DNA of 64,000 nucleotides from sequence record ON528736; one strand, 5' to 3'. The number at the start of each line of letters is the position of its first letter. Positions within the stretch are counted from its first letter, which is position 1. A model generated the notes under the pieces. The model worked only from the letters and a program-made list of their open reading frames with translations, was not told where the DNA came from and did not search any database. This DNA comes from Shigella phage ESh26. Below are positions 5,993 through 60,587 of this stretch, piece after piece. The translations under genes and the position numbers were made by a program.

Positions 5993-5996
5993 CAAT

Positions 5997-6026
5997 GGGG
6001 ACCGAAAGGTCCCCATATTTTTATTT
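5997..6026. terminator. Bidirectional rho-independent terminator between convergent gene 54 and the minus-strand ORF
   Basis: Hairpin ggggaccgaaaggtcccc followed by a T-rich run; lies between convergent stops. Confidence 0.6.
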
Positions 6027-6311
6027 ACGGAATGAAATGAAAGCAGCAACTGAAGCAACTAAACTGTCTTCAATATAAACTTCAATTTTTACCGGAGCTT
6101 CTGACTCAAATTTACCTGTTACTACACCTTGGAAAATGCTTTCAGTCTGTTCTGGCTTTGAAAAATTTTCAGAAGGAAAAATTCCGAACTTTTTATCTGT
6201 TCCAAAAATTTTGATAAATTCATCATAAACTGCTTCATTAAAAGCGTTATCAGCAGGAATAACGCCTTCAACTACAAGTTCTTGACCTAAAAAGCGTAAA
6301 GAAGATTTCAT
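6021..6311 (-). CDS. Hypothetical early protein (96 aa) downstream of the alt paralogs
   Basis: ATG with GAGGA Shine-Dalgarno; preceded by an early-promoter cassette; acidic small protein. Confidence 0.5.
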   Translation of the reverse strand: MKSSLRFLGQELVVEGVIPADNAFNEAVYDEFIKIFGTDKKFGIFPSENFSKPEQTESIFQGVVTGKFESEAPVKIEVYIEDSLVASVAAFISFRK

Positions 6312-6339
6312 TTTGTGTTCCTCATGTTATGTCAGTAAG

Positions 6340-6375
6340 ATTATTATAACACAACACGAGGGACTTGTAAACTAC
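6340..6375 (-). promoter_or_regulatory. T4-type early promoter (-35 GTTTAC, 18-nt spacer, -10 TATAAT) within a duplicated leader cassette
   Basis: Reverse complement reads GTTTAC-N18-TATAAT; about 50 bp nearly identical to 21832-21892. Confidence 0.5.
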
Positions 6376-8429
6376 ATCTTGAACTTTTTAGACATTCCGT
6401 TGATGTTAACCAAAGAAGCCAAGATTTGAGAAACTTCGTTTTCCTCTTCTTTTGATTCTTCTACAAGGAATTGATTAAACCCAGCCATTGGACGAACTTC
6501 ACCAGTTTCCATTAGATGATCGCCATCATATACCGATTCTTCTAATTGTTCAGAAGGAGGAACGATTGTGCCTTCAATTAGATACTTGTTATAAGCAGTT
6601 TCTTTCATCATGTACGTGCTTACTTTATTAATCTTCAACAAAATTCCACGCGGTAGAATAACTTCAGCTTCTGATGGAAATCCCGATAAATGACCTGGAA
6701 CGATAACTTTGATTCGCTCAGCCCCTTTAATTACCATACCTACGCTAGTTTCAGCATCTTCATTCGCATAAGCAGAATGACTGCCCATATGCATTAAATC
6801 TTCAGCATCAACAGAACCTTCTCCTTCACCAGAAAATACTGCGCCGGAATCATCTAGAGCCATATAGTTTTTACCATGCTCACCGAAGATATTTGGTTTA
6901 AGCGATGTTGATACGAAGTTCTTGAAATAGAACATTTTATTTTCAATATTATGGCGTAAAGTTTTAAAAGTAACTTCTTGTCCACGATAAAGCGTAGTTC
7001 CTGGAGGAAGAACTGAACCTTTGGCAAAGGCAGAATCCAGCGTCTCGATGTGTTTAATAGCTCGTTCCATGTATTCTTCACGGGTAGAATCTGGTTTACC
7101 CAAGAGGAACGAGTTCATTTCAACATATGAATCTGCACAATAATCTTCAATTACATCAGACTCAGCTTGAGTCAGTCCTTTTGGAGTTACTTCGGTGCTT
7201 GCGTATTCATATGCCTGAGCAGCAGATTCATTAATCAATTTATAAATGCCATTCATGACAAATTGAATAATAGCTACCTTTTCGTCTGGTGTGGCTTTAG
7301 AACCTTTAACTAAATCATTGATAATTTTCTTAATAACATCAAAGCTATTAGAAATATTAATGTCAGCGAGATCGCTCAAAATTTTATCGGTTTTATAATC
7401 AAAAAATTCTTTATTCTTTAAATATTCTTGAGAACCTTGATGTGTTATATCGCTCTGCAGTCTGATAGACGGATCACGTAAACGCGCATGGGCCAATGCA
7501 ATATGATTTCGGAAGCTTTCTAGTTCATAATCGTTAGATTTAAAACGAGAAGCACTTCTCATACCACCGATAGCTCCTTTGCCGAAGTTTGAACCAATCT
7601 GAATAACACCAGAGTTCATTGGTCCTTCTGCTTTATATACCGGAACTTTAGATTCAAACTCTTGATATTTCTTGGCAGCGAAGCTATCACCCTGAAGCGA
7701 AGCATCGACAGTAGAATATTGAGCTTGTGCTGCCAATCGACGACTAATTTTAGTTTTCTGAATAACAGCTTGATCCGTGCGCTTATCATTTTCTAAAGCA
7801 ATAGAAGCAGCAACAGCAACAGCTTTAGGAACAGCATTACCTGTTTTAACATCTACATAAACATCACCAACCTTTGATTCAACTTTTGTGAATAACTCAG
7901 TTGAAATAGGAGGTACACCTGGAATGTCTTCTAAATTGGCATTTTTACGGTAAACCATAATATATGCATACTTTTTATCATAATCCCAGATTTCCTTTAA
8001 AAGAACATATCGACCTGCTCCTTTAGTACGTACTAAACGGTCAGCAATAACTTGCATTTGACGAGCTGCGCCATTTGTTTTACTTTTTAGTACGCGGAAT
8101 AAGCATGCATCAATTTTATACTGTTTCATTGTTTGAAGAGCAGTATCAAAAACGGCATTAATGACACCAATTGGATTTCCACCCAAGTTTTTAAGTTTAA
8201 CTAATGATAGTTTCTCATTAACACCTATCATTACGATATGCATCATTTTATCGCCTGGCTTAACGTTTTTATTTGTATCACCACCAGAGGTGTATGTACA
8301 AAATCTAAATCCAGGAAGCACACTTTCTTCGCCGGCTTGAATAGCAAAAATTTGAGGTATTTTATGCTTAGGATTTAAGTTAACAACCGGCGCCGAAGCG
8401 CCGTCAAATAATTCTGTAATAAGTTCCAT
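6372..8429 (-). CDS. Alt-like ADP-ribosyltransferase paralog (685 aa)
   Basis: N-terminal about 220 aa nearly identical to the adjacent Alt; C-terminal ART motifs YRGQ, FKNFVSTSL, EAEVILPRG; divergent centre. Confidence 0.8.
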   Translation of the reverse strand: MELITELFDGASAPVVNLNPKHKIPQIFAIQAGEESVLPGFRFCTYTSGGDTNKNVKPGDKMMHIVMIGVNEKLSLVKLKNLGGNPIGVINAVFDTALQTMKQYKIDACLFRVLKSKTNGAARQMQVIADRLVRTKGAGRYVLLKEIWDYDKKYAYIMVYRKNANLEDIPGVPPISTELFTKVESKVGDVYVDVKTGNAVPKAVAVAASIALENDKRTDQAVIQKTKISRRLAAQAQYSTVDASLQGDSFAAKKYQEFESKVPVYKAEGPMNSGVIQIGSNFGKGAIGGMRSASRFKSNDYELESFRNHIALAHARLRDPSIRLQSDITHQGSQEYLKNKEFFDYKTDKILSDLADINISNSFDVIKKIINDLVKGSKATPDEKVAIIQFVMNGIYKLINESAAQAYEYASTEVTPKGLTQAESDVIEDYCADSYVEMNSFLLGKPDSTREEYMERAIKHIETLDSAFAKGSVLPPGTTLYRGQEVTFKTLRHNIENKMFYFKNFVSTSLKPNIFGEHGKNYMALDDSGAVFSGEGEGSVDAEDLMHMGSHSAYANEDAETSVGMVIKGAERIKVIVPGHLSGFPSEAEVILPRGILLKINKVSTYMMKETAYNKYLIEGTIVPPSEQLEESVYDGDHLMETGEVRPMAGFNQFLVEESKEEENEVSQILASLVNINGMSKKFKM

Positions 8430-8432
8430 GAT

Positions 8433-10526
8433 TTATCCTTGAACGAACTTGTAAGGCATGTTTGTAATATCTATGCAAGACGCAATAATTCCAAGAGATG
8501 ATTCTACTTTTTGTTTAACATTTGATGAAACAAATGATGCAAAGTCAACTCTGTCTTCTATTTCAATATCACCTGTCATTGCAACTACTTCACCAGTTTC
8601 CATTAGACGGTCACCGTCATAAATTACTGATTCGGTGAGTTCTTCCGTAGTCATAACTTCAGCTTGAATGAGTTTTGTATTATTAGATGTTGTTCCGTCA
8701 TTATTAGAAGCATCAGTTATTTTATTAACTTTGACCATCAATCCGCGTGGTAGAATAACTTCAGCTTCTGTTGCTATTCCGAGACTTCCTGGATATACAA
8801 CATTAACTTTATGAGCTCCATCAATTGCCCATCCTATTTGAACTTTAACGTATTCAGGATTTTCTTTATACGCTCTTATTTCGTTTGGATTAATAGTTAT
8901 TCCTTCTTCATTTTTATCAACTGTTAATTCATTACGAGCTTCTGGTTCTAAAAGACCAATACCAGCATGTGTAATTCCAAAACGTCCAAAAATGATAGGA
9001 GTTAAAGAAGTAGATACAAAATTTCTGAAATAGAATACTTTATTTTTAACTAGTGCTTCGTATATAGGAGCAGTCATACTTTGAGCACGATAAACTGTAA
9101 TGCCTTCTGGTATACGGTCACCATTTTCAAAAGCTGAATCTAAGTTATTTATAGCAGATTCAATTTCTTTTTCACTCATTACATCATATCGTTCTGGATT
9201 GTAGCGTCCTAAAAGAAGATTATTGATGTCAGTATATCCTGAACCGCAATACTCTCTAATGCCGCGCTTTTGTGATGGAGTATATTTAGAACCATCACGG
9301 GCAATAGTAATATCAATCATTGGACCTGCACCAATTCCAGAAAAGCTATAAATCATTCGTTTGAGGAATTTAGTTTTTGCTGCGTTCCAGGAATTTTTAG
9401 TTATTTCTTCCCAGACTTCATCTGGCTGTCCTTTACGGGTTTTATTATGTTTATCAAGCCAATTATCTTTATATTCTTCAAAGAGTTGATTAACAGCTGC
9501 TGCGTATTTCTCCAAACATTTTATTGAAGTAGTTGGTTCATTTTTAATCGCATTAAGAATTACATCTTTAATCTTTTCAGAAACTTCATTAACCTCACTT
9601 TTTGAAAAGAATTTATAGTCATAATGAAGTTCATCTGCAGTTCCTTCAGCAATAATTTTTGCTGCCTTAGTTTTAGAAGCTAATGAATTAATTCCAAGCT
9701 TCATTTCTTCTGCTTCGGGAATTAAAGGAGCTGTAGCAGGTTTATTGAAATTAGCTGCGGTAGATTCATACTTCTGGAATAATTCACTTTCAAATCTAGA
9801 AGATTCCAATGACTGACTTTGCGCAATTGCTCTACGGGAAATTTTAACTTTAACGATTACAGCTTGATCAGAACGTTTATCGTTTTCTTGCGCAATAGAT
9901 GCTGCAATTGCCTCATTTTTAGTTACTTGAGCTCCGGTATCTTTATTGATATAAACATCACCGACCTTCGATTCAACTTTAGTAAAGAGCTCAGTACTAA
10001 TTTCCGGAACTCCTGGAATGTCTTCTAGTGATACATTTTTGCGATGTATAAGAATATATGCATACTTTTTATCGTAATCCCAGAGTTCCTTAAGAAGGAC
10101 GTATCTGCCACCTGAACGACTACGGATAAGTCTATCAGCAATAAGTTGAATTTGACGAGCTTGACCAGCAGTTTTAGACTTAAGAATACGGAGCATGCAG
10201 GCATCAATTTTATACTGACGCATTGTTTGCATTGCAACAGTAAAAACTGAATTGATGTAATTAATTGGGCTTGGACCGAGACCTTTTAATTTAGCAATTG
10301 AACCTTTAGCAGTTAATGTAAAAGGAACAATATGCATCATTTTATCGCCCATCTTTAAATCGCGATTAGTATCACCTCCAGATGTATAAGTACATAAACG
10401 AAAACCTGGTTGTTCAATTGCGTCATCAACATGAACTGAAAAAATTTGCGGTATTTTCTTCTTTGGATTTAAGTTTGTAATCGGAAGAGTAGTATCTTCG
10501 TCAAATAATTCTGTAATGAGTTCCAT
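8433..10526 (-). CDS. alt: RNA polymerase ADP-ribosyltransferase Alt (packaged, injected)
   Basis: About 697 aa; N-terminus MELITELFDEDTTLPITNL... and ART motifs YRAQ, FRNFVSTSL, ATEAEVILPRG as recalled for T4 Alt; located between 54 and 30. Confidence 0.85.
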   Translation of the reverse strand: MELITELFDEDTTLPITNLNPKKKIPQIFSVHVDDAIEQPGFRLCTYTSGGDTNRDLKMGDKMMHIVPFTLTAKGSIAKLKGLGPSPINYINSVFTVAMQTMRQYKIDACMLRILKSKTAGQARQIQLIADRLIRSRSGGRYVLLKELWDYDKKYAYILIHRKNVSLEDIPGVPEISTELFTKVESKVGDVYINKDTGAQVTKNEAIAASIAQENDKRSDQAVIVKVKISRRAIAQSQSLESSRFESELFQKYESTAANFNKPATAPLIPEAEEMKLGINSLASKTKAAKIIAEGTADELHYDYKFFSKSEVNEVSEKIKDVILNAIKNEPTTSIKCLEKYAAAVNQLFEEYKDNWLDKHNKTRKGQPDEVWEEITKNSWNAAKTKFLKRMIYSFSGIGAGPMIDITIARDGSKYTPSQKRGIREYCGSGYTDINNLLLGRYNPERYDVMSEKEIESAINNLDSAFENGDRIPEGITVYRAQSMTAPIYEALVKNKVFYFRNFVSTSLTPIIFGRFGITHAGIGLLEPEARNELTVDKNEEGITINPNEIRAYKENPEYVKVQIGWAIDGAHKVNVVYPGSLGIATEAEVILPRGLMVKVNKITDASNNDGTTSNNTKLIQAEVMTTEELTESVIYDGDRLMETGEVVAMTGDIEIEDRVDFASFVSSNVKQKVESSLGIIASCIDITNMPYKFVQG

Positions 10527-10578
10527 CATATCCTCTCTAGTGTTTATTCTATTTATAAAATTAAAGGCCCGAAGGCCT

Positions 10579-10767
10579 TTAATAATCTATTGGTAAGAGA
10601 GTACGGTATATTTCAAACTTTGGACCTTTTTCATAGGCATCAAATGTTTCTGCGAATTTATTATAAGCATATGCATCTATAAATTCAATCATAATTTGTG
10701 ATACAGAAGTAGAAACATCTCCACCTTCTTTTTGAGCCACGACAATTGTTTCTAAGTAAGCTTTCAT
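10579..10767 (-). CDS. Hypothetical small protein (62 aa)
   Basis: ORF between ligase and alt; followed by a GGCC-UUCG-GGCC hairpin at about 10563-10581. Confidence 0.4.
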   Translation of the reverse strand: MKAYLETIVVAQKEGGDVSTSVSQIMIEFIDAYAYNKFAETFDAYEKGPKFEIYRTLLPIDY

Positions 10768-14287: not shown

Positions 14288-14328
14288 AGTATTTTCCTCA
14301 GTAAGGGGCCGAAGCCCCTCATTTTATT

Positions 14329-14762: not shown

Positions 14763-15095
14763 TTATTTTACTACTTTCCAATGCTTCATGTCAAGTTTAC
14801 CAACTTTTTTCATCTTCTCAATTAAGCGTTCTGCACGTTGGCGAGATGTAACATAATGCCATTCACCTAATTCATTTTGTTCAATTTTTCCAACGATTAC
14901 CGTATTCAATTCATAAATCCAACCAGTAAAGAAATTATGAACTTGAATTGTAAAGGTGAAATCTGTTCCCATACCTTCTGTTGTTTCTACTTCAATAACA
15001 TCACCTTCAACTGCCATTAAGAACCACATAGTTTCATCATATTTACCATTGAAGCATTTAGTTTTAACTGTAGCGTTCAGATTAATCGTTTTCAT
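14763..15095 (-). CDS. Hypothetical protein (110 aa)
   Basis: ATG start downstream of an early promoter. Confidence 0.55.
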   Translation of the reverse strand: MKTINLNATVKTKCFNGKYDETMWFLMAVEGDVIEVETTEGMGTDFTFTIQVHNFFTGWIYELNTVIVGKIEQNELGEWHYVTSRQRAERLIEKMKKVGKLDMKHWKVVK

Positions 15096-16835: not shown

Positions 16836-17416
16836 TATTCACCACAGAATTCGTTGATATTTTCCCAGTTTAACTTATTCAAGTTTTTCTTAGGAACATT
16901 AAACACTTCAATACCCGCATTTCGCAGAATATCATCCCAGCCAGGTTTATTTTTATCGTATGTTTCGCAATAAACCAGCTTTTTAATTCCAGATTGAGCT
17001 ATTGCTTTTGCACAATCTGGGCAAGGAGAAAGTGTTACATACATAGTAGCACCTTCAATTGAAGAACCGTTTCGTGCAGCAAACAAAATCGCATTTAGTT
17101 CAGCATGAATTTCATTTTTAGACGACCATTCAGAGTGCGCGCTACGATGTTCTTTCGCCAAGACAAAACGATCAGTTGAACCAAATGATACACATTCAGG
17201 CTTATGACCTTGAATGATAGTATGTTTAGGTTTATTCAACAACCAACCTTGCTCGGCAGCATAATCACAACAGTTCACACCCCCGGCAGGTGAACCATTA
17301 TATCCAGTAGAAATAATACGTCCATTCTTTTCAATTACTGCTCCTACCTTCCAGGAGCAACATTTTGATTCTTGTGATACTAAATATGCAATTTGAAGTA
17401 CTGTACTCGCTTTCAT
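16835..17416 (-). CDS. cd: dCMP deaminase
   Basis: 193 aa; zinc-binding motifs HAELNA and PCPDC. Confidence 0.9.
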   Translation of the reverse strand: MKASTVLQIAYLVSQESKCCSWKVGAVIEKNGRIISTGYNGSPAGGVNCCDYAAEQGWLLNKPKHTIIQGHKPECVSFGSTDRFVLAKEHRSAHSEWSSKNEIHAELNAILFAARNGSSIEGATMYVTLSPCPDCAKAIAQSGIKKLVYCETYDKNKPGWDDILRNAGIEVFNVPKKNLNKLNWENINEFCGE

Positions 17417-20984: not shown

Positions 20985-21334
20985 TTAGAAAGGTCCTGGA
21001 TGTCTTCTGCGAACTTGTTGAAGGAGTTGTTGATTTGTTTTTCAACCAATCCTGGCTTATGAGCCACCACATCCGCCTTCTTTGCGTCTTTGCGCAGTTT
21101 TTCATTTTCACGCTCAATAGCAGCAATTGCCTCACGATTTTTATTATTCATCGCATCAATATAATTATACTGAATTCGCAAATTATTTAATGCTAAAGCG
21201 TTTTCATTGGCCGTTTTTGTAATTTCTACAACAGACGTTTCTAATCTTTCAATTTTATTTTTTAAAATTAAAGAAGTTCCGCCCAATGCAATTACAATTA
21301 ATAGCAAGCCTGTTGTCGTATTACTTAATTGCAT
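20981..21334 (-). CDS. Membrane-anchored coiled-coil protein (117 aa)
   Basis: N-terminal hydrophobic segment LLLIVIALGGTSLIL followed by heptad-like charged region. Confidence 0.5.
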   Translation of the reverse strand: MQLSNTTTGLLLIVIALGGTSLILKNKIERLETSVVEITKTANENALALNNLRIQYNYIDAMNNKNREAIAAIERENEKLRKDAKKADVVAHKPGLVEKQINNSFNKFAEDIQDLSK

Positions 21335-21831
21335 AAAGTTTTAATAACCTCTATAATATCGTCTTGAGAAAGACCGTTAATTAAAATATGATGTTCAGCA
21401 GGAGATTTAGAAATTTTAAAGCATGCCTCAACATCTTCTGCCATATCCGATGCACTACGATTTGGATTACTAATTCCAAGACGATGTTTTCCCGTTAAAG
21501 GATTAACGATTATATAGCATTTACAGTTGTTAATATGAACATTAGGTTGAGTCTGATTAATGAATACATCACAATCATATTTCGCAAGCTGATTTTCTAA
21601 AAAGACTTTCATCTCCTCAACCGCATCAGGAAGCATATCACGGGCTTGCTCAAGACGACGATTTCGATATTCTTTAATGGTCGTTTTCCGCTTGACTTGT
21701 TTAGCTAAATCTTTCTTAAGATCGGTGATATATCCAACTCGACGATTTCCTTTAAATACAGAAATCCCATCTGTAGTATCACCGTATGCTTCAACGACCA
21801 TCTCAGTAGTAATAAGCTGCAAATCCATCAT
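21325..21831 (-). CDS. alc: Alc, inhibitor of host transcription
   Basis: About 167 aa; position between rnlA and pseT cluster as in T4. Confidence 0.8.
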   Translation of the reverse strand: MMDLQLITTEMVVEAYGDTTDGISVFKGNRRVGYITDLKKDLAKQVKRKTTIKEYRNRRLEQARDMLPDAVEEMKVFLENQLAKYDCDVFINQTQPNVHINNCKCYIIVNPLTGKHRLGISNPNRSASDMAEDVEACFKISKSPAEHHILINGLSQDDIIEVIKTLCN

Positions 21832-21857
21832 AAAGTCCTCATGTTATGTCAGTAAGA

Positions 21858-21892
21858 CTACTATAACACAACACGAGGGACTTGTAAACAGC
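21858..21892 (-). promoter_or_regulatory. Early promoter (GTTTAC-N18-TATAGT), second copy of the duplicated leader cassette
   Basis: About 50 bp nearly identical to 6312-6371 including the Shine-Dalgarno region. Confidence 0.5.
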
Positions 21893-23480
<1,588 letters not shown>

Positions 23481-23507: not shown

Positions 23508-24677
23508 TTAAAAATATTTTTTAAAACTCATCATAACTTTATCATCAACATCATTATCAATCTGTGCTACAAGGTAAGATGACAGTTCTACTTCTTGTGG
23601 CGCGGATTGAACATTATCAGAATTAAGATATTCACGAATCCAAGGATACGGGTGTTTAACCGGAGCATCGGTAATTGGGCATGGAAGACCGCACTGTTTC
23701 ATACGAGATACAGTTAAGTAATCAATAAAGCTCCACATGCTATTTGTATTTAATCCAGGAACATCGCCATCTTTAAATAAATGAACTGCCCAGTCTTTTT
23801 CTTGGCGGTTGACTTCCATAAAAATATCAACTGCTTCTTGTTCACACTCTTGGGCGATTTTAACCCATTCATCACCATCAGTGCCAAGTTGAAGTTGACG
23901 AATAATATATTGGGTACCTTTAAGGTGAAGCTGTTCATCACGAGCAATGAACTTCATAATCTTGGCATTACCTTCCATGATTTCCATGTTTTTATGGAAG
24001 TTAAAGGTACATGCGAAAGATACATAAAAACGAATAGCTTCCAATGCGTTGATTACATGAAGGCAAAGATAAAGAGATTTCATTAGTGCCCGTTTAGTAT
24101 ATTCAACAACTTTGCCTAGCTCTTCTTTATGAAATCCTTCTGATAAAATTCCTTCATAATCTTCAACCGCATTCTGATATTCACGAGTCTTAACTAGAAC
24201 ATCATCGTAATAGCGACCAATGGACTCGGCACGTTTCATAATAGCTTTATCTAATACAATCTCATCAAATACCTTTGATGGATCAGTATAAAGATTTCGC
24301 ATGATATGAGTGTATGAACGACTGTGAATAGTTTCACTAAAAGTCCATGTAGCAACCCATGTATCAAGGCTTGGGTCTGAAATTAACGACATAAGTACAG
24401 CAGACGGTGCACGGCCCTGAATGCTATCTAAAAGTGATTGATACTTCAGGTTATTAGTAAAAATATCTTGCTGATACTGAGGAAGCTTGTTAAATTGTGC
24501 AGCATCCATCATTAAGTTTACTTCTTCAGGACGCCAGAAAAATGACAACTGCTTTTCGGTTAAATCTTCAAAAACTTTATGACGTTGAATATCATAACGC
24601 GCAATACCAAGACCTGAACCGAAGAACATGGGTTCTTTTAAAACATCAACTGGATTTGTATTAAAAACTGTGCTCAT
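23508..24677 (-). CDS. nrdB: Ribonucleotide reductase small subunit, uninterrupted
   Basis: 389 aa continuous ORF; no intron or I-TevIII-like ORF. Confidence 0.9.
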   Translation of the reverse strand: MSTVFNTNPVDVLKEPMFFGSGLGIARYDIQRHKVFEDLTEKQLSFFWRPEEVNLMMDAAQFNKLPQYQQDIFTNNLKYQSLLDSIQGRAPSAVLMSLISDPSLDTWVATWTFSETIHSRSYTHIMRNLYTDPSKVFDEIVLDKAIMKRAESIGRYYDDVLVKTREYQNAVEDYEGILSEGFHKEELGKVVEYTKRALMKSLYLCLHVINALEAIRFYVSFACTFNFHKNMEIMEGNAKIMKFIARDEQLHLKGTQYIIRQLQLGTDGDEWVKIAQECEQEAVDIFMEVNRQEKDWAVHLFKDGDVPGLNTNSMWSFIDYLTVSRMKQCGLPCPITDAPVKHPYPWIREYLNSDNVQSAPQEVELSSYLVAQIDNDVDDKVMMSFKKYF

Positions 24678-30764: not shown

Positions 30765-30800
30765 TGCCGATAGTTGTATAGTACCATAAAGCTTTATGCT
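30765..30800 (-). promoter_or_regulatory. Early promoter (GTTTAC-N18-TACTAT), part of a three-copy conserved cassette
   Basis: Reverse complement ...ttttttcacaaaacggTTTACA...ggTACTATacaactatc. Confidence 0.5.
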
Positions 30801-30835
30801 TGTAAACCGTTTTGTGAAAAAATTTTTGAAATAAA

Positions 30836-30860
30836 AAAGGGGACCTCTAGGGTCCCCAAT
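30836..30860 (-). terminator. Rho-independent terminator downstream of gene 32
   Basis: Hairpin ggggaccctagaggtcccc followed by a T-run on the minus strand. Confidence 0.55.
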
Positions 30861-48003: not shown

Positions 48004-48044
48004 TTTCTAATCTCCGTAATTCTGTATCAGTAGTTGATAGTTGT

Positions 48045-48074
48045 ATAGTACCACAGTATGCTTTGGTTGTAAAC
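48045..48074 (-). promoter_or_regulatory. Early promoter (GTTTAC-N18-TACTAT) upstream of motA
   Basis: Part of a conserved cassette repeated at about 30765 and 51845. Confidence 0.5.
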
Positions 48075-48106
48075 CGTTTTGTGAAAAAATTTTTGAAATA
48101 AAAAAA

Positions 48107-48130
48107 GGGAGAGCCGAGGCTCTCCCTAAA
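48107..48130 (-). terminator. Rho-independent terminator
   Basis: Hairpin gggagagcc-tcgg-ctctccc followed by a T-run on the minus strand. Confidence 0.55.
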
Positions 48131-51803: not shown

Positions 51804-51844
51804 TTTATTCTCCAAATCCGTATCAGTTGATAGTTGATAGTTGT

Positions 51845-51874
51845 ATAGTACCACAGTCCTTGTGGTATGTAAAC
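51845..51874 (-). promoter_or_regulatory. Early promoter (GTTTAC-N18-TACTAT), third copy of the conserved cassette
   Basis: Near-identical to the cassettes at about 30765 and 48045. Confidence 0.5.
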
Positions 51875-51892
51875 CGTTTTGTGAAAATTTTT

Positions 51893-52450
51893 TTAAATGG
51901 AAAGATACCATCCGTTGTAGTTGCTTTTTCTTACAACCTTACGAAGGTCTTCTCTATCACCGATGAACTTCGGAGTGTACTGGATGACACCTGGGTGAAT
52001 TTCTTTAGTGTTGAATATAATTATACAGTCAGCGACCTGATGATTCAGAATGGGCCCTAGATTTATTCCAGAACCGTATGGATACTCTCCGCTGCATCCT
52101 GTTGTTACAGAAATCCAACGTGAGTCAGTTTGATGTGTCTTAACTTCTACACGAAGCCCGCAGTATCTTGGATGCGCCAATACATCCCATGCGTATGTAT
52201 ACGGGTCATTAACATCCTCTTGGCCTTTGTTAACATACCCGCTTAGCCAATCTGCTACAAAAAACTCTGCGTACACCGCGATACGACATCTTTCGATAAC
52301 TTCTGCTTTATCCTGGTTCGGGTTTTGTTTTAAAGAGTATCTTGCTGTATCAGCAATTTTGACCTTCATTTCACTAGTCAAGTCACTGTTCGATAGGGTA
52401 AATGTCGGAATCTGAAATAGTCTCTGTAAACCCGGATTCGTTTTCTGCAT
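51893..52450 (-). CDS. denB: Endonuclease IV
   Basis: 185 aa as in T4 DenB; position between rIIB and ndd. Confidence 0.85.
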   Translation of the reverse strand: MQKTNPGLQRLFQIPTFTLSNSDLTSEMKVKIADTARYSLKQNPNQDKAEVIERCRIAVYAEFFVADWLSGYVNKGQEDVNDPYTYAWDVLAHPRYCGLRVEVKTHQTDSRWISVTTGCSGEYPYGSGINLGPILNHQVADCIIIFNTKEIHPGVIQYTPKFIGDREDLRKVVRKSNYNGWYLSI

Positions 52451-52712: not shown

Positions 52713-52750
52713 AATTTTTCCTTAAAACAAAAGGGTCGAAGCCCCTTATT

Positions 52751-52945
52751 TTATTTGAATTGTGAAATTCTTTTTTCTAAACAATCTGCGTAAGATTTCA
52801 TTGAGATGAACTGTGAAAGCAGTAATTCTTGCTCAACTTCATTAATCGTTAGAAACTTTGTGCTTTCTAAAAATTTGCTCAGTGCATTAATTTTGAGCAT
52901 TAATTGATCGTATTCTTCTTTTACTCGTGCTTGATAACCTAACAT
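52751..52945 (-). CDS. Hypothetical protein (64 aa)
   Basis: ORF; hairpin gggccgaagccc just upstream. Confidence 0.45.
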   Translation of the reverse strand: MLGYQARVKEEYDQLMLKINALSKFLESTKFLTINEVEQELLLSQFISMKSYADCLEKRISQFK

Positions 52946-52973
52946 AATTTTCCTTAGTTAAGGGCCGAAGCCC

Positions 52974-53912
52974 TTATTTAAATTGTTCAGTAACGTCTTC
53001 AACTACTTCGTATTGGCAGGTACGCATTTTAGCATCGTTGTAATCAATTGGAATTGATACTACATCACGCGGATGTACTTTAACTTTTACAACTCGGCTG
53101 GTTGAACTGCCAAAGTGACGAATATAAGATTTAGAACACACATGCAGACCACGAGAACAAGTTTGTGTATCATCGTCATTCACACGAGTACGTGGCATTT
53201 TAACTACTTTACCAGGACTGTTATCAAAAGTATTTGAATGACAGTCAAAGTAATTACTGCGAACTACTTTCCAAGCATAGAAGTAACCATCTTCTGTAAT
53301 TTCAATATCGTTTGCTACCAAGAAATCGAAGAGTCGAGATACCGCTTTTTGGCTCGGGTTTTCCAACAGATTTTCCAAGAACGGAAAATAAAATTCAAAG
53401 TTTTCGCCTTTTTCCATCGAATCGAGAATACGATCAACTAAACCAGACCGCAATTCAATATTTTGATAGAACAAGCTTCCACCTTCAATTCGAACATCAC
53501 CGGAAATATATTTTTCAACAGCGCGACGAACATTAATTTTTTGTGCCGCTTCTTCCAATTTATCTGCAACAAGCAGATTAAGAATTTCCTGGAAGTTTGA
53601 ATGAGTATTAGGAGTTGCGTTATAAGTTACACCATCAACAGTAATTGAAATGAATTTTTTAGATGCATTCCAAATAATGTCAGATTTAGCAACTGGAGCA
53701 ATAGCGGTATCGCTATTAACTTTAACTGTAATATCACCGCTAATGGTAACTTTGGAGCGCTCAGCTTCTTCAGCATTTTTCAAAACACGACGGATTGTGT
53801 CAACCGATACACCTTGCCAATCAGCCAATTCCTGCTGGGTGTAATTACCACTTGAATACAGTTTGACAATTTCAGCTTGTTCGTTTTTGGTCAGGCATTT
53901 AATATTGTACAT
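52974..53912 (-). CDS. rIIB: rIIB protein
   Basis: 312 aa as in T4 rIIB; directly downstream of rIIA. Confidence 0.9.
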   Translation of the reverse strand: MYNIKCLTKNEQAEIVKLYSSGNYTQQELADWQGVSVDTIRRVLKNAEEAERSKVTISGDITVKVNSDTAIAPVAKSDIIWNASKKFISITVDGVTYNATPNTHSNFQEILNLLVADKLEEAAQKINVRRAVEKYISGDVRIEGGSLFYQNIELRSGLVDRILDSMEKGENFEFYFPFLENLLENPSQKAVSRLFDFLVANDIEITEDGYFYAWKVVRSNYFDCHSNTFDNSPGKVVKMPRTRVNDDDTQTCSRGLHVCSKSYIRHFGSSTSRVVKVKVHPRDVVSIPIDYNDAKMRTCQYEVVEDVTEQFK

Positions 53913-58187: not shown

Positions 58188-58256
58188 CACTTATCCTCGT
58201 TTGGTTTCGGGAATATTATACTCCGGTAATCATAAAGCTAAAGGCCCGAAGGCCTT

Positions 58257-58529
58257 TTATTTAAAACGGATAGTCGAATCCTTGAAGAATAGACCAGAAC
58301 ATACGGTTCCTTCTACTTTCTGCCCGGTAGGTCCAATAGCACGAAATCCAGTATGTTGGAAATCATTTTCAGAGCAACCGAACCAATTGTATCCAGTGAT
58401 TTCAATATTAGTAAACCCACTTGAATACAAAACTTTGGTTGCATTATCAGCATCAGTACATCCTGCTAAAGACACTGCTAATACTAATGCCGCGATAGAA
58501 CGATTAACATATTTCATAATTTCACTCAA
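58257..58529 (-). CDS. Putative lipoprotein (90 aa)
   Basis: Signal peptide with lipobox SLAGC|T. Confidence 0.5.
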   Translation of the reverse strand: MSEIMKYVNRSIAALVLAVSLAGCTDADNATKVLYSSGFTNIEITGYNWFGCSENDFQHTGFRAIGPTGQKVEGTVCSGLFFKDSTIRFK

Positions 58530-60017: not shown

Positions 60018-60059
60018 TCAGTAGTTGATATTGATATAGTACCATAATCAACTACTGAT
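60018..60059 (-). promoter_or_regulatory. 12-bp perfect inverted repeat enclosing a -10-like TACTAT (PeSL-like element)
   Basis: tcagtagttgat ... atcaactactga. Confidence 0.45.
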
Positions 60060-60089
60060 GTATATAGTTTTATGAAAAAATTTTAAACT

Positions 60090-60587
60090 TTATGCACAGC
60101 GAGCTTTGCTATAGTGTTTAATCCAACTTTCAGGAATGACTTTGTATGTTCCTAAAAATACCGCGTTGTACAACTTAACGCCATCTTCTACCCACTGATC
60201 GGTAATGTATGCACACATAGCGCGAGTACGATGTTTTTGAACAACACCTTCCTCATCTTCAGTAAATTCGAATTCATAAGGAGCAACGAACTTAATAGCT
60301 TGACCGAGTTTCCACTTAAAGTCTACGCCTACATGCGAAGTATCAATCGTTTCAATTCCTTTAGCAGGAACAGCTTTCAAAAACGCAGACTCAAGAAATT
60401 TCGCACGAACATAGCCAAACTGAGGTTTAGACTTTCCATCTTTAGGAATGATACGCACTTTTACTTCAGAATCTTCATCTTTAACACCGTGTTTAAGCTG
60501 AATGCTTACAATTTCAACCAATTTTCCTGCTGCTTTAGAGCGGGATTTATCAGATACACGAGCTAATTCACCAATATTAATAATCAT
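60090..60587 (-). CDS. motB: MotB-like protein (165 aa)
   Basis: Size and position consistent with T4 MotB (about 162 aa) upstream of dexA; downstream of an early promoter. Confidence 0.6.
   Translation of the reverse strand: MIINIGELARVSDKSRSKAAGKLVEIVSIQLKHGVKDEDSEVKVRIIPKDGKSKPQFGYVRAKFLESAFLKAVPAKGIETIDTSHVGVDFKWKLGQAIKFVAPYEFEFTEDEEGVVQKHRTRAMCAYITDQWVEDGVKLYNAVFLGTYKVIPESWIKHYSKARCA

Follow-up and report, generated by a model that had tools for sequence, protein, structure and literature searches.

T4 early promoters are recognised by the host sigma-70 RNA polymerase and combine an UP element, a -35 motif (GTTTAC), a TGn extension and a -10 motif (PMC2988021). T4-type phages also carry promoter-early stem-loop (PeSL) cassettes (Arbiol et al. 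2010; Comeau et al. 2014; PMC2839356; PMC4122927), while hairpins with an internal promoter sequester the ribosome-binding site of T4 genes such as soc and I-TevI (PMC3014915). Here, we study an element that belongs to these known kinds: a cassette of 54 nt found twice in a stretch of 64,000 nt from Shigella phage ESh26 (sequence record ON528736; hereafter the window, meaning the whole stretch), once upstream of alt.-3 and once upstream of alc. Each copy consists of an early promoter, a leader and a Shine-Dalgarno sequence, and the spacer of the promoter is complementary to the leader and Shine-Dalgarno sequence that follow it, which may make the cassette a translational gate as well as a promoter.

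Two Near-Identical Promoter Cassettes

The two cassettes, A (6319–6372) and B (21836–21889), lie on the minus strand at a distance of 15.5 kb and were grouped by the repeat finder into a single family (D10) with 96% identity. When aligned, they agree at 52 of 54 bases, whereas the flanks on both sides are unrelated, so that the likeness ends sharply; the mismatches are two A/G differences at cassette positions 29 and 32 (TATAATAAT vs. TATAGTAGT). The initial annotation had reported a near-identical cassette ahead of two unrelated genes, namely a 96-aa open reading frame (ORF) at 6021–6311 and alc. This is confirmed, including the sequence it quoted, which is exact, and the identity of the downstream genes, the 96-aa ORF being alt.-3; only its limits (6312–6371 and 21832–21892) were a few bases off. 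The window itself belongs to Tequatrovirus, with 99.9% identity to phage HY01 at site A and about 95–96% to T4.

The resemblance is not at chance level. The first 28 nt of the cassette (GTTTACAAGTCCCTCGTGTTGTGTTATA) occur exactly twice in the window, and not once in 100 dinucleotide shuffles. As a control for resemblance within the promoter family, we compared the 16 GTTTAC-N17-TAnnnT sites of the window's minus strand, which yield the A/B pair and 119 other pairs. Against the 52/54 matches of A and B, these other pairs have a mean of 25.1 matches (standard deviation 5.0; maximum 40), and when only the 38 non-consensus positions are counted, A and B score 37/38 versus a mean of 12.5 and a maximum of 26 for the others. 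The repeat thus far exceeds both chance and the resemblance due to a shared promoter consensus. A larger ancient duplication encompassing the genes is ruled out, as the flanks are unrelated and BLASTP finds no similarity between Alt.-3 and Alc. Moreover, none of 5,426 complete E. coli genomes contains a match to the 54-mer, so there is no sign of a host origin. As for a known RNA family, none was identified: an Rfam search of the whole window returned no match reaching the gathering score and, around site B, chance-level matches only (E ≥ 0.2).

Both cassettes are members of the window's GTTTAC promoter family (D1 in the repeat analysis). In cassette A, the -35 element TTTACA (GTTTAC by T4 convention) is at 6366–6371 and the -10 element TATAAT at 6343–6348, separated by a 17-nt spacer and with a TG at 6350–6351 before the -10; in cassette B, TTTACA at 21883–21888 and TATAGT at 21860–21865 are likewise 17 nt apart, again with a TG before the -10. 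With this extension in both, the promoter scan scored cassette A at 11/12 and cassette B at 10/12. The transcription start predicted by a spacing rule is, for A, the A located 7 nt past the -10 hexamer (6336) and, for B, position 21853. An 18-base leader with GAGGA at its end follows within the cassette, the Shine-Dalgarno sequence being GAGG(A), and the leader up to the start codon measures about 25 nt at both sites. As candidate A/T-rich, UP-like sequence upstream of the -35 element, site B has TTTTTTGAAAAATTATAAAAAATTT at 20–45 nt and site A just AAAAAG. A predicted early promoter is annotated at the homologous position before alc in the record of Yersinia phage fPS-90, and time-resolved data for T4 place both alt.-3 and alc in the early class for RNA and for protein (PMC9697503, supplement); among the genes upstream of them in T4, alt.-1 and alt.-2 have middle RNA, and rnlA has early RNA and late protein (same supplement). 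Altogether, these data support both copies as sigma-70-type T4 early promoters with leader and Shine-Dalgarno sequence, standing before unrelated early genes. The promoter-plus-leader reading of the initial annotation is therefore borne out by the scan, the fPS-90 record and the T4 classes, and the identical regulation that it claimed for the two genes agrees, at a coarse level, with their common early class in T4.

Two further features of the window's promoters and leaders can be mentioned here. Both leaders hold a short reading frame, AUG AGG...UGA (6309–6326 and 21829–21843, minus strand), the stop codon of which shares bases with the main start codon (AUGA); this frame lacks its own Shine-Dalgarno sequence and is probably coincidental. 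Separately, a second family of early-promoter cassettes (D2) is found at 30769–30843, 48036–48110, 51836–51910 and 60027–60101; these cassettes include an upstream A/T-rich block, and the two most similar of them share 87% identity over 75 nt.

A Predicted Hairpin over the Ribosome-Binding Site

One property of the cassette was not seen in the initial annotation: its spacer is complementary to its leader and Shine-Dalgarno sequence. The cassette is an inverted repeat, in which positions 12–25, in the spacer, pair with positions 40–53, in the leader and GAGG. In cassette A, the 5' arm (CCCUCGUGUUGUGU U; 6348–6361) is the promoter spacer, which is present only in RNA coming from upstream, and the 3' arm (GACAUAACAUGAGG; 6320–6333) is the leader, with GAGG at 6320–6323; the corresponding arms of cassette B are at 21865–21878 and 21837–21850, the latter including GAGG at 21837–21840. 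Folded as RNA, the 54-mer is predicted to form a hairpin of 18 bp with an energy of -22 kcal/mol (z-score -5.4), which none of 200 shuffles equalled. Four of the inner pairs overlap the -10 hexamer in part, so that the -10 element sits atop the hairpin. In T4, the sense strand folds far better than the antisense strand (-24.4 vs. -15.4) because of three G-U pairs.

The predicted state of the ribosome-binding site differs between the two kinds of RNA that can carry it. Read-through RNA contains both arms and is therefore expected to fold into the hairpin that buries the site: RNAs initiated upstream have z-scores from -5.3 to -5.6 and a predicted probability of an unpaired Shine-Dalgarno sequence of at most 0.01. 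In contrast, the predicted +1 (cassette position 37) lies 3' of the entire 5' arm, so that promoter-initiated RNA would exclude this arm and leave the site open. The leaders taken from +1 are indeed unstructured (z-scores +0.4 and +1.3), which rules out a structured leader in the promoter-initiated mRNA. Expressed as the predicted cost of opening the ribosome-binding site, the values are 18–20 kcal/mol for read-through RNA versus 3–5 kcal/mol for promoter-initiated RNA.

Many early promoters in the window have palindromes in their spacers. At three other minus-strand promoters (61778, 51380 and 15152), the spacer is predicted to pair with the promoter's own Shine-Dalgarno sequence (z-scores -6.2, -5.0 and -1.95, respectively), which suggests, as far as folding predictions go, that the device is not peculiar to alc; promoter 61778 precedes the ORF after dexA, and promoter 15152 precedes an ORF of 110 aa at 14763–15095, which is 30.8 by synteny. 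At three more (30095, 18565 and 60661, minus strand), the predicted partner of the spacer is the very start of the transcript (z-scores -3.3, -4.2 and -2.7), the hairpin surrounding the -10 element and the Shine-Dalgarno sequence not being covered.

Conservation of the Predicted Hairpin

Upstream of alc, a hairpin of this kind is predicted in 10 of 12 genera, with arm sequences that differ. Besides Tequatrovirus, these include Dhakavirus (IME08, VR5), Marfavirus (Marfa), Gelderlandvirus (NP4), Karamvirus (AS6), Roskildevirus (FBB1), Jiaodavirus (TU02), Bragavirus (SdyM_006) and Winklervirus (Vettismorki). Across genera, the 5' arm begins directly after the -35 element (GTTTACA) and the 3' arm spans the Shine-Dalgarno sequence, with z-scores from -2.6 to -6.2 and a predicted opening cost that is 9–15 kcal/mol higher in read-through RNA than in the promoter's own transcript. 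The arm pairs read CCTCGTTTGTT/AACAAACGAGG, TCTCCGTTTAGTT/AACTAAACGGAGA, ATCCTCGTCAG/CTGATGAGGAT or AACCTCTCATTTT/AAAATGAGAGGTT depending on the genus, and the type of Shine-Dalgarno sequence (GAGG, GGAG, GAGGAG, GAGAGG) shifts jointly with the spacer (CCTC, CTCC, CTCCTC, CCTCTC). Since alignments computed with MAFFT or a covariance model mis-register some arms or take in unrelated promoters, this comparison relies on per-sequence folding.

Within Tequatrovirus, all natural haplotypes retain the hairpin (-17 to -26 kcal/mol), 98% of the cells of the alignment are paired, and four pairs change on one side yet stay paired (C-G to U-G, G-U to A-U). The T2-type haplotype of site A is more stable than the consensus, its C11U pairing with a flank base specific to site A. 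The eight substitutions observed do not have clearly milder effects on folding energy than the full set of possible ones. This within-genus evidence is consistent with selection on the hairpin but not decisive, and the recurrence of the hairpin at alc across genera is stronger evidence for it than the variation within Tequatrovirus.

Distribution and Origin of the Cassettes

A 69-nt query matched 997 places in 499 phage records, all of them Tequatrovirus, with two places per genome except in one partial record. T4 has both copies, which differ at one base. In a sample composed of the window, T4, nine further genomes from GenBank and two IMG/VR contigs, the twelve genomes with both sites carry the cassette exactly twice, invariably ahead of alt.-3 and alc, and the seven loci retrieved by a scan of IMG/VR all fall in these contexts as well. 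Both contexts are syntenic in all sampled Tequatrovirus and in 8 to 12 other genera.

The outgroups point to the origin of the copy at site A. The order alt-like gene–alt.-3 is kept in eight outgroup phages from seven other lineages, six of them named genera (RB69, IME08, VR5, Marfa, EnC15, Melville, Kosakonia 305 and Ursula). Most of their alt.-3 promoters are of a different type, in which the spacer is an internal palindrome, CACATGGA(A/T)GTG; Kosakonia 305 differs. Seven of the eight sites lack a hairpin over the Shine-Dalgarno sequence and show opening differences of at most 3 kcal/mol, while Kosakonia 305 has predicted opening costs of 16.8 (read-through) versus 3.5 kcal/mol, owing to another predicted structure that does not involve the spacer. 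The spacer found in Tequatrovirus (AGTCCCTCGTGTTGTGT) is similar to the alc type of the outgroups (TCTCCTCATGATGTGT; ACCTCGTTTGTTCGTGT), and the flanks of site A are homologous to those of the outgroup sites up to GTTTAC and again from about GAGGA on. Because the outgroup alt.-3 promoter is of another type, the simplest account of these sequence comparisons is that, in the ancestor of Tequatrovirus, an alc-type cassette probably took the place of the original promoter of alt.-3, an exchange that would be anchored in the shared blocks GTTTACA and ATGAGGA. The near-identity of A and B would then reflect common descent, and we infer both the direction and the mechanism of copying from the same comparisons.

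After this presumed copying, A and B have come to differ at 0 to 5 positions. There are alleles that occur at a single site (TACAGT solely at B and TTCCTTATG solely at A), which means that frequent ongoing conversion is not indicated. Ongoing concerted evolution in Tequatrovirus is thus unsupported, given these site-confined alleles and an A/B divergence of 0–5 nt, which is like that between orthologues. A further case is seen in Dhakavirus, where VR5 has an identical stretch of 31 nt (CCTTACACAAACATGAGGAGAACATTATGAA), comprising leader, Shine-Dalgarno sequence and start, at both alt.-3 and alc (at about 16930–16990 and 360–420 of the compared VR5 sequence), even though the promoters differ. 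In IME08, of the same genus, the alc leader is different. This points to a second, independent homogenisation event in Dhakavirus.

Proposed Mechanism and Alternative Explanations

Building on the repeat, the promoter anatomy, the predicted fold with its recurrence across genera and the different type of the outgroup alt.-3 promoters, we consider it rather probable that A and B are functional early-promoter cassettes that gate translation by means of the hairpin, and that the alc copy overwrote the former promoter of alt.-3. According to this scenario, host sigma-70 RNA polymerase would recognise both promoters, each driving an immediate-early gene, alt.-3 or alc. RNA arriving from the alt-like gene (site A) or from rnlA (site B) would fold the hairpin and bury the ribosome-binding site, whereas RNA from the cassette's own promoter, starting at about position 37 and devoid of the 5' arm, would have this site open. 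In this way, the translation of alc, and in Tequatrovirus that of alt.-3 too, would be coupled to the early promoter of the gene itself and limited to the early period.

Several points weigh against this scenario. Three natural substitutions in Tequatrovirus break a pair, no double compensatory change is seen in this genus, and the shuffle control for covariation there is uninformative because the 3' arm is invariant. At alc, RB69 and Providencia phage PSTCR6 have no hairpin over the Shine-Dalgarno sequence; the hairpin is therefore not indispensable. Most outgroup genera have Watson-Crick pairs throughout, so that their sequences do not tell an RNA hairpin from a DNA palindrome, and covariation across genera was read from per-sequence folds rather than from a neutral structural alignment. 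The transcription starts and the gating are predicted, what the hairpin does is deduced from predicted folding and comparative recurrence, and the direction of copying is judged from short motifs and eight outgroup phages. Finally, comparably placed stem-loops of RB49 were shown to behave as terminators or attenuators (PMC2839356).

This last point leads to the published reading of PeSL cassettes, in which an early promoter is combined with a terminator or attenuator stem-loop that acts on transcription from upstream and not on translation. The same publication (PMC2839356) places the stem-loops of RB49 and phi1 mostly between the -35 and -10 elements or overlapping the -10 and reports that one of them reduced lacZ expression like a strong terminator; furthermore, the hairpin described here is strong (-22 to -24 kcal/mol). 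Yet the stem is not followed by a U-run but by ACACAAAAUG or CUUUAUGAUG, and by A-rich sequence in other genera, while the terminator scan finds nothing at either cassette; an intrinsic (Rho-independent) terminator at A or B was rejected on these two grounds. Moreover, in 10 of 12 genera the 3' arm lies on the Shine-Dalgarno sequence, a placement not required of a terminator. We thus regard a terminator or attenuator as unlikely, if the most serious of the alternatives to a translational gate.

Another possibility is that the copies matter mainly as a substrate for recombination, be it deletion, duplication, excision of a 15.5-kb circle or exchange of modules during co-infection. Recombination and the release of mini-circles have been demonstrated for PeSL cassettes (PMC2839356), the cassette studied here seems to have moved between both loci, and the leaders of VR5 are identical over their 31 nt. 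However, the interval between A and B holds the DNA ligase gene (gene 30) and gene 31, which the record of RB32 marks as essential, and the interval and both copies are kept at all 997 places: among the 499 records, none lacks the interval or has lost one copy, the partial genome aside. In addition, the site-specific alleles argue against frequent exchange, and the break in homology between T4 and the window near site A lies some 20 nt upstream of the cassette and not inside it, being due to the truncation of alt.-2 in T4. As general background, a tandem duplication of 15.5 kb would exceed the headful, and a mismatched repeat of 54 bp is close to the minimum length for efficient homologous recombination in T4. 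We therefore hold this explanation to be improbable. As for the initial annotation, its suggestion that the direct repeats could mediate deletion is not supported, given the genes in the interval and its retention in these relatives, whereas its modular exchange survives in another form, since it is the cassette itself that was apparently copied from alc to alt.-3, with the VR5 homogenisation as a parallel, which is a different sort of exchange from the one it envisaged.

The inverted repeat might also act as DNA, either as the operator of a protein or as a cruciform overlapping the promoter. Such a role would fit the perfectly Watson-Crick arms of most outgroups, which fold equally well on either strand, and the spacer palindromes in many early promoters of the window. 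But the arms differ among genera while complementarity is kept, unlike what is expected of a protein-binding site, the three G-U pairs make the Tequatrovirus structure specific to the sense strand, and the 3' arm always takes in the Shine-Dalgarno sequence, so that we give this option very little credence. Lastly, convergence on an optimal promoter, or chance, is effectively refuted and has a negligible probability: T4 early promoters do have an unusually long common consensus (PMC2988021), but A and B match at 37 of 38 positions outside it against a mean of 12.5 for the 119 other pairs, and the shuffles predict no second copy of the 28-mer.

Genomic Context

Cassette A lies directly upstream of alt.-3 (6021–6311, minus strand), an early gene of unknown function encoding 96 aa, and it begins on the final base of the upstream gene's stop codon. 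This upstream gene encodes an Alt-like ADP-ribosyltransferase of the alt.-2 type (6372–8429, minus strand) and would be the source of read-through RNA into cassette A. A terminator-like hairpin readable on both strands (5995–6016) closes the alt.-3 transcription unit. Further upstream, a late-promoter motif (TATAAATA) precedes alt (10550–10557, minus strand), and late transcripts starting there would traverse alt and the alt-like gene into cassette A. Cassette B is located between the stop codon of rnlA (gene 63; ORF at 21893–23053, minus strand), which ends 3 nt ahead of it, and alc, the gene of an inhibitor of host transcription (21325–21831 from the first ATG, minus strand; the start annotated in T4 is the second ATG, at 21828). 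Here, rnlA would be the source of read-through RNA. The terminator scan found nothing between the upstream gene and the cassette at either site. Regarding Alt.-3, T4 mutants with a C-terminal extension of this protein escape the CmdTAC defence by blocking the degradation of CmdA (PMC11618068).

Some other observations concern the neighbourhood. The window has two full-length alt-type ADP-ribosyltransferase genes in tandem (6372–8429 and 8433–10529, minus strand), which share stretches of 72–94% nucleotide identity at a constant offset of 2091–2097 nt (families D3, D8, D11, D12 and D17); in T4, only the fragments alt.-1 and alt.-2 remain of the second copy. The nrdB gene (23508–24677) is a single uninterrupted ORF of 389 aa, and no group I intron reaches the Rfam gathering score in the window, whereas the T4 nrdB carries an intron with I-TevIII. 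GC-rich hairpins of the terminator type recur at 14291–14328, 52718–52755 and 52947–52984, and at 10550–10583 and 58227–58260 (families D7 and D16), with the cores GGGGCCGAAGCCCC and AAAGGCCCGAAGGCCTTT; the one at 10550–10583 overlaps the late-promoter motif upstream of alt.

Implications and Comparison with Known Systems

Our literature search found no paper on the duplicated promoter or on a hairpin at alc, but the older T4 literature is mostly outside its coverage and a prior description is possible; a review of the T4 hairpins (PMC3014915) does not mention alc. If true, translational gating would account for a block of 54 nt, extending beyond the hexamers, that is near-constant at two loci in hundreds of phages, and it would provide alc, which encodes a factor shutting off host transcription, with an early-only rule of translation independent of read-through. 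It would also give the classic T4 device of a late promoter within a hairpin (lysozyme, soc, 49, I-TevI) an early-promoter counterpart that works with the opposite timing. Independently of gating, the replacement of the alt.-3 promoter by the alc type, as we reconstruct it, would be a clean and datable case of a regulatory cassette copied between distant loci of the phage core, which bears on how T4-like phages rewire accessory genes such as alt.-3, mutants of which escape CmdTAC. In practical terms, anyone engineering or deleting sequences near alt.-3 or alc in T4 should consider that the promoter spacer may double as an anti-Shine-Dalgarno arm.

More tentatively, promoter-in-hairpin gating could be general in T-even early genes, and the stem-loops of PeSL cassettes could be translational gates more than terminators, an idea that we put forward as a possibility and consider more doubtful than gating at alc and alt.-3 themselves. 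Many early-promoter spacers would then be selected as anti-Shine-Dalgarno sequences, and an early gene would be translated only from its own promoter's RNA, remaining silent on middle or late read-through RNA. Promoter and leader would co-evolve as a unit, so that cassettes would spread whole by ectopic conversion; the copying of the alc cassette to alt.-3 in Tequatrovirus and the homogenised leaders of VR5 would both be instances of this.

With T4 early promoters, cassettes A and B share the -35 element GTTTACA, the 17-nt spacer, the TG, the TATAAT or TATAGT hexamer and the association with early genes (PMC2988021), and possibly A/T-rich sequence upstream. They differ from them in being near-identical to each other in spacer and leader as well, the rest of the family having only the consensus in common.

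The likeness to PeSL cassettes (PMC2839356; PMC4122927) lies in AT-rich sequence, an early promoter of the sigma-70 kind with which a stem-loop overlaps, and a Shine-Dalgarno sequence and start codon at the 3' end, all in one intergenic element of about 60–100 bp; A and B too combine promoter, stem-loop, Shine-Dalgarno sequence and start codon in one intergenic element. Both are multi-copy families with exchange of sequence between cassettes, which for A and B we infer by comparison. There are nonetheless several differences. The published PeSLs of PST and T4 are drawn with the stem-loop upstream of the promoter, whereas here the stem-loop encloses the promoter and has the Shine-Dalgarno sequence as its 3' arm. 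Cassettes A and B have no terminator features (neither U-tract nor scan match), they lie in a conserved syntenic core around essential genes instead of flanking an ORFan in a hyperplastic region, and no indel is associated with them.

Finally, the hairpins over the translation initiation regions of e, soc, 49 and I-TevI (PMC3014915) have the same layout as the one predicted here: the Shine-Dalgarno sequence is sequestered in the long RNA, and an internal promoter lies in the DNA of the 5' strand. In those four genes, however, the internal promoter is a late one (TATAAATA), which delays translation until the late period, whereas in cassettes A and B it is an early sigma-70 promoter, and the predicted effect is the reverse, i.e., translation restricted to the early period.

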